64,000 bases of DNA from a bacterium (GTDB taxonomy: Bacteria; UBA8248; JACPRG01; G963555815). Location: positions 224,001-288,000 of the forward strand of contig CAUVWX020000001.1 in the NCBI GenBank assembly GCA_963555815.3, given 5' to 3'. Position numbers and translations under genes: made by a program. Under the pieces are notes generated by a model. It searched no databases. It was not told the origin of the DNA and worked only from the letters and a program-made list of their open reading frames with translations. Shown here piece after piece: positions 23,636 through 29,389 of the stretch (positions within the stretch are counted from its first letter, which is position 1; every line of letters begins with the position of its first letter).

Positions 23636-24229
23636 CTAGCGCCTGCGGTGGTTATCAATCCCATGGTAGGCCTCGATGTAATCCACGATCAGTTTTTCAT
23701 CGAATGCCTCCAGCTCCTCTATCCGGCGCCAGGCAGTGAGGACAATGAGGGGTTCCATATCAGGATAGGGGGCCGCGATGACGAACTCCGGATACCGCTT
23801 CACAACGGCTTCAATCTTCTGAATGAGATCAGCACAATCCTGACAGCGATATTGGACGAGGACCCCTCCATCCTCGAGGTTATGAATCTGGAGGGCCTTT
23901 GGGAGGGGTGCCCGGTGAACACCCCAAGGGGCGATGAAAGGAAGATGAGGTCCCGACGTGGGTGGGTTGCTGTTATAGGGGAAGGGGATCCGTGCTTGAG
24001 CTTCAGAGATGTGTCGATGCCCCTGGCTGGCCAGGACTCTCCCAAGGGAGTCCCGTGAGGTCAACTGATAGATGCCAAAGGCGATGCCTGCCAAAACGAG
24101 AAGGGAAATCCCATACCCGATCCGCTTTCGCGATGCCTTGGTCCGGCGCTTGGTGCGCTCCTGTTTTTGTACCTCCTGCGACTTCCGGCGATCGGGGCGT
24201 TTTTCCCCTTTTTTCGGGCCCTTCTTCAC
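23636..24229 (-). CDS. DUF3105-family membrane-anchored protein
   Basis: Basic N-terminus, TM, then QG.RH, YNSNPPTSGPH, HNLEDGGV, LTAW; GTG start chosen from a GAGGGAGG RBS. Confidence 0.8.
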   Translation of the reverse strand: MKKGPKKGEKRPDRRKSQEVQKQERTKRRTKASRKRIGYGISLLVLAGIAFGIYQLTSRDSLGRVLASQGHRHISEAQARIPFPYNSNPPTSGPHLPFIAPWGVHRAPLPKALQIHNLEDGGVLVQYRCQDCADLIQKIEAVVKRYPEFVIAAPYPDMEPLIVLTAWRRIEELEAFDEKLIVDYIEAYHGIDNHRRR

Positions 24230-24457
24230 CCTATGTCCTCCCTCATCCACAAGTCTCGCTTGTGGTCGCAATCCCCCACCTGACACCTCTGCAATGGGGC
24301 TTTGTCAACAAGAGACTGTATGTTGTAGCCAAGATCCACTTTTTACACAAGCCCAGAAGCAATTCTATCTCTCATTCCCAGTCGGATGGAAGGGGCCTTC
24401 GCCAGAACCCGAGGAGCCAGGTCCCTCTCCCTGCCCTGCCGGTCAATGAATTCAGCG

Positions 24458-24542: not shown

Positions 24543-25586
24543 ATGCAAATTTTCAAGCCGCAAATACTTCGGGGGATCATTCTCTTCTTCATGGTGCTCC
24601 TGGGGAGCCCAGGCATCCCTTGGGCCCAGGACCGCACCGACATCCTCGGCCCGCTGCCCCTGCGAAACCACCAACCCCTTCATCTCCTCTTCTATGAGTT
24701 CGTCCCCGAGCGAGCCTACGCGCTCCGCCAGGGCTCCTATCTCGTCCGCCTCGATATGACAGAGACCAACACCATTCTGGACGACTTGAACAAGGAGCCT
24801 TCCTTTATCGCGGACCTGGAGATGAGCCGTTTCACGTGGCGGGGCCTCTACGGCCTCTCGCACAACGTGACCGTCGGGATCGAGGTCCCCCTCGTCCACA
24901 CCTTTGGGGGCATCCTGGACCCCTTCGTCGAAGGGACCGAGCGCCTCTTAGATGAGCTCCGTGAGGATCGGCGCTTGGAGAACGACGGGGACTTCCGCTT
25001 CTTCCTGGACTCCCTGGGGGACCGGATTTTAGAAGGGAACCGGGGGGCCTTTGGGATCGGGGACGTGGCCCTGGAGGGGATGTGGCAGTTTTTGGAGGAG
25101 AGAGGCCCCTTCATCCCCGCCATGACCCTAAGGGGTGCGATCAAGTTCCCAACCGGAGACCTGGATCGCGTCTTCGGGAGCGAAAAGTTCGACGGGGCCA
25201 TGGGTTTTGCGGCGCAGAAGATCTGGGGTCGCTGGAGCGCCTCCGCCAATTTCGGCCTGATCATCATCTCCGACCCCTTTGATCGGCCGGAGATTAAGAC
25301 AAAGCCGGTGATCGCCAGCGGGAGCTTTTCCCTGGAGCGCCTCATCACATCCACCATCTCTCTCATCCTCCAGGCCAACAACGCCAGCGCGCCCTTTGAA
25401 AGGACAGGGTCGCCCACGGTGCGGCCCCTCAGTGACTCGACCCATGAGGTGGCCTTCGGCATCAAGTGGGGCTTTGGAAAGGCTGGCCTCCTTCAGTTCG
25501 CCTTTGTGGAAGATTTCGCCGATCGGGCAGCAGTAGACGCCGATATCACCTTCCTCCTCTCCCTCGGCCATCGGTTCGGACAGTGA
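24543..25586 (+). CDS. DUF3187-like outer-membrane beta-barrel protein
   Basis: Signal peptide, GPLPLRN.QP, GG.LDPFVE, GIGDV.L, K.PTGD, terminal aromatic strand. Confidence 0.7.
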   Translation: MQIFKPQILRGIILFFMVLLGSPGIPWAQDRTDILGPLPLRNHQPLHLLFYEFVPERAYALRQGSYLVRLDMTETNTILDDLNKEPSFIADLEMSRFTWRGLYGLSHNVTVGIEVPLVHTFGGILDPFVEGTERLLDELREDRRLENDGDFRFFLDSLGDRILEGNRGAFGIGDVALEGMWQFLEERGPFIPAMTLRGAIKFPTGDLDRVFGSEKFDGAMGFAAQKIWGRWSASANFGLIIISDPFDRPEIKTKPVIASGSFSLERLITSTISLILQANNASAPFERTGSPTVRPLSDSTHEVAFGIKWGFGKAGLLQFAFVEDFADRAAVDADITFLLSLGHRFGQ

Positions 25587-25812: not shown

Positions 25813-26931
25813 GTGTCAGTTCCCCTGATTCAGCAGATTCGCGTTGGCGCATACGTGCTCAAGAAGCGCATCAGCGGGACCAAGAGATATCCGCTGGTGC
25901 TCATGCTCGAGCCCCTGTTCCGTTGCAACCTGGCCTGCGCCGGCTGCGGCAAGATCGACTATCCAGATCCCATTCTAAACCTGCGCCTGAGCGTCCAAGA
26001 ATGTCTGGAGGCGGTCGACGAGTGTGGAGCTCCCATCGTGTCCATACCCGGAGGCGAGCCCCTCCTGCACCGTGAAATCGGCGAGATCGTCGAGGGGATC
26101 GTCACCCGCAAGAAGTTCGTCTATCTGTGCACCAACGCCCTCTTGCTGGAAAAAAAGCTCCACCTGTTTAAGCCCAGCCCCTATCTCACCTTCTCCATCC
26201 ACCTCGACGGCGACCAGGAGCATCATGACGCCTCTGTCTGTCAGGAGGGCGTGTACGACCGGGCGGTCAAGGCGCTCCAGGCGGCCCGCGAAAAGGGCTT
26301 CCGCGTCAACATCAACTGCACGCTGTTCGACGGGGCTGAACCGGAGAACGTGGCGAAGTTCTTCGACGACGTCATGACCTTCGGCATCGAAGGGATCACC
26401 GTATCCCCGGGCTACGCCTACGAACGGGCGCCGGACCAGGAGCATTTCCTCAGCCGCCAGAAGACCAAGCAACTCTTCCGTGACATCTTCCGTTACGGCA
26501 AGGACCGCCACTGGTCCTTCAGCCAGTCGACCATGTTCCTCGACTTTCTGGCTGGCAACCAGCAGTATCACTGCACCCCGTGGGGCAACCCGACGCGCAA
26601 TATCTTCGGGTGGCAGCGGCCGTGCTACCTCCTTGGCGAAGGCTACACCTCGTCCTTCAAGGAGCTGTTGGAAGAGACCGAATGGGACATGTACGGCACC
26701 GGCAATTACGAGAAATGCTCCAACTGCATGGTCCACTGCGGCTATGAGGCCACCGCCGTCACCGACACCCTAGCCCACCCGCTGAAGGCCCTCATGGTCT
26801 CCCTGAAAGGCGTCCGCACCGACGGCCCCATGGCCCCGGAGATCCCCCTGGGCAAGGCGCGGCCTGCCGAATACGTCTTCTCAGAACATGTCGAGGAGGC
26901 GATGGCGGAGCTGAGCGGGGAGGCCAAATAG
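25813..26931 (+). CDS. hpnH: Adenosyl-hopene transferase (radical SAM)
   Basis: YPLVLMLEPLFRCNLACAGCGKI, CTPWGNPTRN.FGWQRPCY, C.NCMVHCGYE. Confidence 0.95.
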   Translation: MSVPLIQQIRVGAYVLKKRISGTKRYPLVLMLEPLFRCNLACAGCGKIDYPDPILNLRLSVQECLEAVDECGAPIVSIPGGEPLLHREIGEIVEGIVTRKKFVYLCTNALLLEKKLHLFKPSPYLTFSIHLDGDQEHHDASVCQEGVYDRAVKALQAAREKGFRVNINCTLFDGAEPENVAKFFDDVMTFGIEGITVSPGYAYERAPDQEHFLSRQKTKQLFRDIFRYGKDRHWSFSQSTMFLDFLAGNQQYHCTPWGNPTRNIFGWQRPCYLLGEGYTSSFKELLEETEWDMYGTGNYEKCSNCMVHCGYEATAVTDTLAHPLKALMVSLKGVRTDGPMAPEIPLGKARPAEYVFSEHVEEAMAELSGEAK

Positions 26932-27075
26932 CGGGGGCGTACGCACACCCGCTCGGTTTAAGAAAATCCCCCTCAGCTCATCTCGGACATCGGCAAGAAA
27001 GAGACCCAGGCTGGCGGGGACCCGATATAAAGAACTTGATAGGGCATCTCTGAGGCTTAGAAGGGGTGAAAGGAA

Positions 27076-27813
27076 TTGGCCATTCAGCATAAACAGAACC
27101 GGTATAGACAGAATCGGCGAACACCTCCGGGGCCGTTGGCGGGCCTTTGGTCGTGGCAGTATTACGACGTCCGCAAGATGTTCGGGATCCTCCTAAACCC
27201 CACGGTGAAGTCCTACTATAAGATGTTTCCAAAGATCTTACCCCTGGGCTCACAGTTCCCGGAAATAGAGCTGGAGATCGCAGCCGGGGGGAAGATCAAC
27301 ACAAAACAGCTTCGATGGAAAAAGCACTTTGTCCTCCTCACCGGGTCCATCACCTGACCGCCAAGCCGGAGGCAGTTGCCTCTTATGGAAGAGCTGGCAA
27401 GAAAGTATAGGGACAGGGATGTGGAGATATTTCTCATGTATGTCCAGGAACCCCATGCGGGGAACCGGGGCTATCGCCAGTTCCGAAAGGGGGGTTTTCG
27501 CAAGTACCGATTTCACGAGAGTGATGAGCATAAGATGGAGGTCGCGAAGCTCCTTGTGAAAAAGCACGGTTTAACCATCCCCTGCTTGGTGGATGGCGTT
27601 GACGAGAAGGTCCACCGGATCATTGGAGGACTCCCGAACCTTGTCTATGTGGTGAATAAGGAGGGGGAGATAGTGTACAAGTGCAGCTGGACAGACGCCG
27701 ACGTCATTGACGACATTTTGGCACAGCTCGTGACGGCGGATGACCCATCTCGCCCTGTCCAAAAGACGATGGACGACCGCCGTGTCCCGGGACGGATCCC
27801 CGTTGAGGTCTGA
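27076..27813 (+). CDS. Deiodinase-like thioredoxin-fold selenoprotein (UGA 27355-27357 read as Sec)
   Basis: ORFs 27076-27357 and 27376-27813 share a frame; joined they read VLLTGSIT-U-PPSRRQLP..MYVQEPHAG..LVDGVD..GGLPNLVYVVNKEGEIVYK, matching deiodinase motifs. Start may instead be ATG 27178. Confidence 0.82.
27368..27383 (+). promoter_or_regulatory. Bacterial SECIS-like hairpin
   Basis: GGAGGC-AGTT-GCCTCT stem-loop; the GAGGC stem starts after an 11-nt spacer from the UGA and the loop contains GU. Confidence 0.65.
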
Positions 27814-27952
27814 AAACCTGGAGCCAGTCAGGGTTGGCCTGAGGCGACCCTTTGCCAAGCGAAAGGCGGGCTAAAAGGTGACGGCACAAAGAAACCTCTT
27901 CTCATTGCGTTTCCCGGCCAACGTCATGCGCCCCCATAAGAGAGCGGATACA

Positions 27953-29389
27953 ATGCGGCTCTTTGTCCTTCTTTTTTCCCTTCTCCTCGCCCTCCCAGCC
28001 GAGGCGGCGATCCGCGTCGCCGTCTTCGACCTCTCGAACCAGTCGGGAAACGGCGCAAAAGAAGAATATAGCTGGGTCGGCCTCAATGTGTCCGAAACCC
28101 TAGCCGGTAAGCTCTCCGAGGTCCCTGGTGTCCAAACCATTCCGCGGCCCATGTGGAAAGATCTCGCCCAGAAACTCAAGTTCTCCTCTTCTGATCTTCT
28201 TGACCAAAAGAACGCCCTCCGGATCGGAGGGTTTCTTGGGGTGAACACAATTATTCTTGGCTCCTTCACCGTCCTTGAAGAAGAGATCAACTTCAACTTC
28301 CGTTTTGTCGACGTCGATACAGGGACACTTCTCAGGAACTTAAACCGTACCAGTCCAAAAGATGACCGCCTCCTTGAGACTCTCGCGGCGTTCTCTCTTG
28401 AGGCCGTCGAGGCTCTGAATCATAGGGTGATAGACGGCGAGGTGGTGGCTTTGCCTCCCGAAGAGAGACTGGAGGTCGCCGAGGAGACAAAGGAGAAGAT
28501 TCAAAGGCCGCCGACTAAGAATCTGGAGGTCTATGCCTTATTTGGAAAAGGAAACGAGGCAAATGACCAAAACCGCTGGGAGGAGGCCATCTCCCTCTAC
28601 CGGCAGGTCCTCGAACTTGACGAGGACTACGCCGAGGCCTGGCAGAGCCTGGGGGGTGTCCTGACAAACCGCGAGCGGTTGGAAGAGGCGTGGGAGGTGG
28701 GAAGGAATGCCCTCACTATCTTCAAAGAACGGGGAGATGAGAGGAGGAGGGGGGAGATTCTCAATTACCTTGGCGTCGTCATGGAAAGGCGCGGACGCTT
28801 CGAAGATGCCGATGAACTCTACAAGGAGAGCCTGGATATTGAACAGAAAATCAATAACGAGCCCGGCATCGCGCGGACGCTGAATAACCTGGGAATTATC
28901 GCTATGAATCGCGGACGCACCGTCGCGGCCGAGCGGCTCTACCGGGACAACCTGGAGATTGAAAAGAGAATCGGCAACAAGCCCAGCATCGCACAAACCC
29001 TGAATAACCTGGGAGTGCTCGTCTATAGCCGGGGGCAATTCAGGAACGCCGAGGAGTTCCTCCAAGAAGGCCTGGTGATTAAGAGGGAACTGGGCGACGC
29101 CCTGAGTGTCGCAAGGTCGCTGAATAACCTTGGAATCATCGCCGTGAGAGGCGGACGCTTGAAAGAGGCCGAAGGATTCTATGAGGAGAGTCTGGACATT
29201 CTAAGGGAAGCTGGCGATGTCCCAGGCGCCGCCCTAGCCCTCTTCAACCTCGCCCTTCTCGGAAGAGACCAGGGCTTAAAGGACCCACCCCTCCTTCAGG
29301 CAAAAGAGGCCCTTGAGACATTCCGCAGGATAGGAAGCCCATATGTGGACAGGACGGAATCTCTCATCCAGCAGCTCGAGAGCCGCTAG
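27953..29389 (+). CDS. Secreted TPR protein with CsgG/TolB_N-like N-terminal domain (paralog A, five 40-aa repeats)
   Basis: Signal peptide, RVAVFDL.N; repeats LNNLG at a 120-bp period. Confidence 0.85.
   Translation: MRLFVLLFSLLLALPAEAAIRVAVFDLSNQSGNGAKEEYSWVGLNVSETLAGKLSEVPGVQTIPRPMWKDLAQKLKFSSSDLLDQKNALRIGGFLGVNTIILGSFTVLEEEINFNFRFVDVDTGTLLRNLNRTSPKDDRLLETLAAFSLEAVEALNHRVIDGEVVALPPEERLEVAEETKEKIQRPPTKNLEVYALFGKGNEANDQNRWEEAISLYRQVLELDEDYAEAWQSLGGVLTNRERLEEAWEVGRNALTIFKERGDERRRGEILNYLGVVMERRGRFEDADELYKESLDIEQKINNEPGIARTLNNLGIIAMNRGRTVAAERLYRDNLEIEKRIGNKPSIAQTLNNLGVLVYSRGQFRNAEEFLQEGLVIKRELGDALSVARSLNNLGIIAVRGGRLKEAEGFYEESLDILREAGDVPGAALALFNLALLGRDQGLKDPPLLQAKEALETFRRIGSPYVDRTESLIQQLESR
28741..29260 (+). 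repeat. 120-bp imperfect tandem coding repeats
   Basis: ctgaataacctgg-like core recurs at about 28760, 28880, 29000, 29120 and 29240. Confidence 0.85.

Follow-up and report, generated by a model that had tools for sequence, protein, structure and literature searches.

Two same-frame open reading frames parted by a single stop codon may be a broken gene, two genes, or one gene whose internal UGA is read as selenocysteine (Sec). This question arises at positions 27076 to 27813 (+) of the window, the 64,000-nucleotide stretch of DNA analyzed here, where a preliminary description had proposed a hidden deiodinase-like selenoprotein. If the gene is one, it also has to be asked what its product would act on.

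The internal UGA

Translation of the window confirmed the proposed layout. The region is a single 245-codon frame whose sole internal stop is a TGA at 27355 to 27357 (+), between the residues LTGSIT and PPSRRQLP (GSIT-U-PPS); the full coding sequence runs from a TTG start to a TGA stop at 27811 to 27813 and specifies 245 amino acids, including the putative Sec94 (U94). The choice of the TTG start is supported by a Shine-Dalgarno-like GGGGTG 7 nt 5' of it (27063 to 27068, +) and by a Met at the same place in the ortholog from another genome of the same genus (G001); GGGGTG also precedes the ATG of the paralog. Under table 11, the region is read as a 93-amino-acid and a 145-amino-acid ORF, and gene callers do split it, as had been foreseen: the protein database record P0002 is the C-terminal half alone, with 142 amino acids at 100% identity. 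We are nearly certain that the two apparent fragments are one intact and conserved gene for a Sec-containing enzyme.

The genome that holds the window (G000; 2.08 Mb, 95.7% complete) contains the Sec machinery that the preliminary description had suggested looking for. selA, selB, and selD exceed their TIGRFAM cutoffs, a tRNA-Sec is present, and selD carries an in-frame TGA of its own. Among 51 genomes of the phylum, selA was found in 49 and the deiodinase-like protein was matched in 48; the misses are G042, where an N-terminal piece lies at the end of a contig, and two genomes with generic thioredoxin matches only, namely G043 and the 99% complete G041, which does have selA. The 67 loci gave 69 distinct frames, of which 63 full-length ones were kept for clade counts; the six rows left out are L069 (two pieces, split by an insertion), L070 (the match ran past the stop), L071 (a C-terminal half), and L072 (two pieces, frameshifted). 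All 63 full-length sequences, which are kin and do not give independent counts, have one TGA each, in the same column. The site is covered in 38 of 40 metagenome loci, with TGA in 36, TGT in one, and TGC in one, the last two being distant homologs. We further examined 149 of 150 listed cluster representatives of distant homologs: 119 span the column (Cys in 107, another residue in 12), 6 are N-terminal halves ending just before it, 21 are C-terminal halves, and 3 are other. Homologs therefore carry Cys or the Sec codon at this column, as the selenoprotein reading had anticipated.

Independent sequencing runs, in which TGC or TGT had been named as the contrary observation, carry TGA. We compared 4 of 23 listed runs; contigs of X3, X5, and X7, from three other studies, cover the TGA codon without a difference, and X17 misses the codon. 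An RNA-library contig spans 27070 to 27316, though contigs cannot show transcription. Against the G001 ortholog, dN/dS is 0.44 5' of the TGA and 0.10 3' of it, three other pairs give 0.09 to 0.27, and neither side of the TGA reaches 1 in any of the four pairs; judged by these ratios, both gene halves are shown to be under purifying selection.

The preliminary description had also reported a GAGGC/GCCTC hairpin with an AGTT loop, starting 11 nt 3' of the TGA, and it is present exactly so (GAGGC at 27369 to 27373, AGTT at 27374 to 27377, and GCCTC at 27378 to 27382). A G-U pair lengthens the stem to 6 bp, giving the SECIS-like hairpin GGAGGC-AGUU-GCCUCU at 27368 to 27383 (+). Published rules for bacterial SECIS elements call for a loop of 3 to 9 nt, a stem of 4 to 16 bp, a G in the first two loop positions, a distance of 16 to 37 nt from the UGA, and a minimum free energy of at most -7.5 (PMC13188914); the hairpin satisfies these with a 4-nt loop, 6 bp, G second in the loop, 16 nt between UGA and loop, and -8.7 kcal/mol. 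Folded as a single sequence, it does not stand out (z = -0.96; 31 of 200 shuffles do equally well), RNAalifold gave no consensus pairs for the hairpin region, and the hairpin has no match in Rfam, so its support lies in conservation. The Gln100 codon is CAG in 63/63 (across these genes, CAG accounts for 318 of 397 Gln codons), Arg99 is never encoded by CGC or CGT (336 of 846 Arg codons), and Leu101 is TTG in 12/12 (136 of 1,031 Leu codons). The Gln codon is broken in L070 (CAA; intact-looking, outside the 63) and in L072 and L103 (CCG). Over 58 distinct sequences, pairing in the five-pair stem amounts to 91.4%, versus 79.4% in shuffles, with double-sided changes at three of five pairs and a true register that beats all slid registers; the structure in this test was taken from the window copy, and the sequences are kin. 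Codon usage at the hairpin shows synonymous-codon constraint. SelB would bind this hairpin, and tRNA-Sec would decode the UGA.

On these comparisons, the internal UGA very likely encodes selenocysteine. That the locus is instead a pseudogene, a sequencing error, or two separate genes is highly improbable: the halves are stored as separate proteins in databases and the hairpin z-score is modest, but the identical TGA recurs in the three independent studies, in every full-length relative, and at 36 of the 38 metagenome loci that cover it. The break also coincides with the catalytic residue of a single fold, and dN/dS is <1 in both halves. Genome-wide reassignment of UGA to Trp or Gly (code 4 or 25), which the G or W at the UGA column of records P0006 and P0007 might suggest, has a negligible chance, because the gene ends in VEV-TGA where its paralog ends in VEV-TAG and L010 in VEV-TAA, among 185 open frames with at least 600 codons, 88 close with TGA (shadow frames included), the sole UCA-anticodon tRNA is called tRNA-Sec, and homologs have Cys at the UGA column; by these signs, UGA is a normal stop elsewhere in G000.

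Protein family, fold, and catalytic network

The joined protein scored above the cutoff in both profile searches suggested for it, with 37.4 bits against Pfam T4_deiodinase (PF00837; cutoff, 27) and 30.9 against AhpC-TSA (cutoff, 26); the Redoxin profile also passes. Its best NCBIfam match is NF038285 (deiodinase_rel; E value of 2e-20, residues 57 to 203), but at 73.5 bits versus 250 for a model of 347 positions, it is not a member. A 48-sequence profile searched against the PDB ranked mouse Dio3 (1.7e-15) and Dio2 (2.6e-14) ahead of ResA (9.4e-13). The AlphaFold2 model (mean pLDDT, 86.9; pTM, 0.88) has a predicted thioredoxin fold with three extra N-terminal helices. With this model, Foldseek placed ResA/TlpA proteins and peroxiredoxins on top (TM-score of about 0.84 by target length), with no Dio chain among the 28 matches listed, down to rank 42. 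These proteins share the fold, but the Dio loop and relay are extra in the window protein.

In Dio2, a proton relay of Ser127, Thr129, Tyr157, Glu160, His162, and His182 and a substrate anchor of Glu225, Arg226, and Lys241 have been described (PMC11592359). By profile alignment, that relay maps to S91, T93, Y122, E125, H127, and H147. YVQEPH at 27439 to 27456 (+) supplies the equivalents of Tyr157, Glu160, and His162, and H147 (27514 to 27516, +) corresponds to His182, the solvent end of the relay; the resemblance claimed earlier for MYVQEPH and GGLPNLVYVV..G.IVYK held up, as both are present and align with mouse Dio3 and Dio2. The TGA itself aligns with the catalytic Cys/Sec of 4tr3 and 9h48. 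T93, Y122, E125, H127, and H147 are invariant in 63/63, and position 91 is Ala in 61/63. This pattern matches DIO1, in which activity survives loss of the Ser but not of the Thr (S123A is reduced in activity, and T125A is dead) (PMC9141512). The broad Cys-type family keeps the equivalents of T93, Y122, E125, and H127 in 101, 114, 117, and 110 of 119 sequences, respectively, and the relay residues are thus no pointer to a halogen substrate in particular.

The substrate side differs. P187-N188-L189 (27634 to 27642, +) replaces the Phe-Glu-Arg of Dio2/3, so that the amino-acid (thyronine) anchor is absent; the sites of Glu225 and Arg226 are N188 and L189, and neither Glu nor Arg stands there in any of the 63 sequences. 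The invariant W205 (27688 to 27690, +) would, by residue count, occupy the place of the carboxylate clamp (Dio2 Lys241, Dio3 Arg275), at a position just past the aligned region. No transmembrane segment was found by Kyte-Doolittle hydropathy (maximum 19-residue mean, 0.92 here and 1.18 in the family). Thirty-four of the 63 proteins have no Cys whatsoever, no resolving Cys is conserved in the clade, and position +3 after U is Y, F, S, T, or A in all 63. Since the Glu-Arg anchor, the membrane anchor, and a conserved resolving Cys are all absent, thyroid hormone is unlikely as a substrate. As read from the alignments, the catalytic network is retained and the thyronine-specific parts are absent.

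In sum of motifs, the window protein shares with Dio1-3 (4tr3 and 9h48) the G-S/A-x-T-U-P-P and Y..E.H signatures, the second His, and the omega-loop insertion in a thioredoxin fold, and with Dio1 the Pro at the Pro213 site. Unlike Dio1-3, it has no N-terminal membrane anchor and no proximal Cys, and its SECIS element lies within the coding region; unlike Dio2/3, it has Pro-Asn-(variable) and apparently a Trp in place of the carboxylate clamp.

The class itself has precedents. Deiodinase-like proteins of both the Sec and the Cys type were described from bacteria in 2005, with a guess at a redox role (PMC1088965). They were counted in GOS in a table that gives no motif (PMC2398784) and are still listed as uncharacterized in reviews of 2022 and 2026 (PMC9312934, PMC13188914); our search of open-license papers found no assayed bacterial deiodinase-like protein. 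With a PF00837 score above the cutoff, UGA at the catalytic position, a bacterial SECIS element, and Cys homologs, the window protein is a genuine and well-supported new member of this family. It is set apart by the listed motif, which the reviews tabulate as UxxC (PMC9312934, PMC13188914), whereas the clade has U-P-P-(Y/F/S/T/A). We did not treat UxxC as defining, because it describes the reviews' representative and PMC2398784 gives none. Its own PPGPLxGxWS extension and its 1 to 4 copies per genome across one phylum also differ from the family as described. The locus adds to the family a clade that is phylum-wide, multicopy, Cys-free, and predicted to be soluble and that has an N-terminal module of its own.

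The clade, its paralogs, and their neighborhoods

The N-terminal extension (residues 1 to 55; 27076 to 27240, +) carries a net charge of +9, predicted helices at 20 to 29, 32 to 40, and 42 to 53, and the clade motif PPGPLxGxWS at residues 17 to 26. It had been described as an unusual basic/aromatic feature of this protein; it is basic, but the whole clade has it. We found the extension in members of the TGA clade and in their split N-terminal halves and in none of the full-length Cys homologs screened. In a quick IQ-TREE search of 104 rows that included no animal Dio, 42 of the 43 rows with TGA fall into one group with 12 non-Sec proteins (SH-aLRT, 96).

G000 has two copies. The paralog (G000:C2:591696-592370; L007) is 69% identical, keeps the TGA, and has an identical SECIS hairpin, and the duplication is common to G001 (support, 98). 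In the Dio omega loop, a basic insertion of 8 residues (139 to 146; 27490 to 27513, +; modeled at low confidence, with a pLDDT of 53 to 68) brings the length to 19 amino acids in the window copy and its G001 ortholog, versus 11 to 12 in the other 61 of 63 sequences. S91, Q124, and the insertion are exclusive to these two among the 63, which suggests that the window copy diverged after duplication.

Several further observations concern individual copies. The window has TGG (W81) at 27316 where X5 and X7 have GGG and 61/63 relatives have Gly, a strain-level change. L016 and L044 (G014 and G038) each hold two divergent paralogs in tandem. The ortholog at L069:3344-4715 (G003) is interrupted by a probable insertion sequence of 1.37 kb that carries 19-nt inverted ends. 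Broken copies are found in G005 and G006 as well, and some genomes of family f1 may therefore be able to do without the gene. In four f1 genomes, the ortholog or its remnant is convergent to selB/selA in L012 and L013 (G005 and G004) and, by coordinates, in G003:C6 and G006:C1.

As the preliminary description had pointed out, the gene lies downstream of hpnH (TIGR03470; 564 bits, cutoff of 225), across a gap of 144 nt. We rejected hpnH as a functional clue: the adjacency is seen just in G000 and G001 (L006, L009, and L033), of the same genus, and hpnH is absent beside the paralog and in the remaining loci. Upstream of hpnH, the window encodes a DUF3187 protein (24543 to 25586, +) and a DUF3105 protein (23636 to 24286, -). 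No plus-strand promoter- or terminator-like sites were found in 26850 to 28050. A TPR gene follows both G000 copies, an arrangement seen at about seven loci. Neighbors in relatives vary by paralog group and include selAB, DinB/mycothiol-transferase-like genes, MFS transporters, and an SsuD-like monooxygenase. The SsuD-like flavin monooxygenase and a flavin reductase lie just downstream and codirectional in one paralog group (6/63 loci: L062, L065 to L068, and L073), and two further groups have other luciferase-like monooxygenases as flanking genes. Luciferase-like genes are numerous in relatives, with 22 to 43 per genome, so that such adjacency is cheap and a lead only; G000 has a single one, distant from both copies. 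In genus g5 (L057, L061, and L063), the gene sits between an amidohydrolase gene and flavin reductase and sulfopyruvate-decarboxylase-like genes. An organosulfonate link of the SsuD-like/g5 paralog group is possible.

About 1.2 kb from the paralog and divergent from it lies a glutaredoxin(UxxC)-thioredoxin reductase fusion (G000:C2; L034:4280-5467, -) with an in-frame TGA at C2:590433 in SQPG-U-PWC. It matches GRX_bact and TRX_reduct/AhpF below the cutoff, and its first residues are lost under table-11 calling. G000 looks selenoprotein-rich on sequence grounds. A crude scan returned 345 TGA read-through candidates, and among those listed by hairpin energy, about a dozen near the top have redox motifs; further candidates that combine a hairpin with CxxU, UxxC, or a similar redox motif lie on C1 at 522249(-), 628154(-), 1028120(-), 613365(+), 582574(-), 994249(+), 572890(-), and 712847(-) and on C2 at 498129(-). 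BSepDB lists three UBA8248 genomes with 48 to 54 selenoprotein genes each (PMC13326102), and about 4 million characters of its supplement gave no match to "deiodinase" or "UBA8248" (PMC13326102).

Candidate activities and substrates

By analogy to Dio1-3, the product is in all probability a single-selenol, deiodinase-type ping-pong reductase, predicted to be a soluble thioredoxin-fold enzyme. The Sec94 selenolate would take a halogen, or another electrophilic atom, off the substrate, while a T93-E125-H147 relay, braced by Y122 and H127, would deliver a proton. Because the clade has no conserved Cys, the oxidized selenium would be re-reduced externally by a thioredoxin- or glutaredoxin-type partner, for which the fusion protein beside the paralog is one candidate. 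The most likely substrate is a small halogenated aromatic compound that is neither an amino acid nor thyroid hormone, although we would put an aryl halide at a little short of an even chance. Against a halogen reading, the gene is near-universal in the phylum and present in two copies in a 2-Mb genome, which fits a housekeeping redox role equally well. The neighborhoods contain no halogen pathway, with a haloalkane-dehalogenase-like gene (below the cutoff) about 500 nt upstream in 2/63 loci. A search for RdhA in the 51 genomes gave no match, but the controls likewise gave none, so this is no evidence that RdhA is missing.

A one-Sec peroxidase acting on H2O2 or organic hydroperoxides, for instance those leaked by flavin monooxygenases, and recycled by thioredoxin or glutaredoxin is conceivable but rather doubtful. 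Dio-fold proteins are described as peroxiredoxin-like (PMC11592359, PMC9141512). Bcp and 1-Cys peroxiredoxin chains are among the Foldseek matches, and the SsuD-like monooxygenase with its flavin reductase, as well as the other luciferase-like neighbors, speak for this reading, but luciferase-like genes abound in the relatives and the only one in G000 is remote from both copies. Peroxiredoxins are marked by the proline of PxxxT/SxxC and a catalytic Arg; the window protein has L87 at the former site and L189 at the latter.

Less likely still is a single-selenol enzyme that, like ResA/TlpA proteins or monothiol glutaredoxins, would act as a thiol-disulfide or sulfenyl reductase, with a protein or a small mixed disulfide as the substrate. 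ResA/TlpA proteins are the best structural matches, the invariant P187 aligns with the proline of ResA GPLPT, and a DinB/mycothiol-transferase-like gene (below the cutoff) follows the ortholog codirectionally in most g7 loci. However, Dio1 likewise has Pro at the P187 site (PMC11592359), the second Cys is absent (U-P-P-S/Y/F in the clade, with no CxxC in the window protein, which scores 39 bits versus 170 with NF002854), and the Dio-specific loop with its invariant Glu and two His would serve no purpose in enzymes of this kind. Searches of G000 (95.7% complete) gave no gshB or bshC.

Returning to the deiodinase-type reductase, a more specific proposal, which we hold to be possible though on balance doubtful, is that the Cys-free, soluble, Sec-only clade is a multicopy core reductive dehalogenase of an uncultured phylum, independent of B12 and flavin, for natural iodo- or bromo-aromatics, and that the window copy is a duplicate that regained the relay Ser, lengthened its basic loop, and was thereby retuned to a new substrate.

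At the level of annotation, this locus corrects a routine error, as half-proteins make up the majority of database records for the TGA clade. If the proposed activity is true, the Dio fold would gain its first known activity in bacteria; a dehalogenase would add a new route by which microbes cycle iodine and bromine and would be relevant to how animal deiodinases arose, whereas a peroxidase would join the selenium antioxidants of an organism rich in selenoproteins. The protein is a good test object, being small and predicted to be soluble, with the Dio catalytic network but no thyronine anchor. Its paralog pairs with differing substrate loops bear on the role of bacterial deiodinase-like proteins, a question since 2005.
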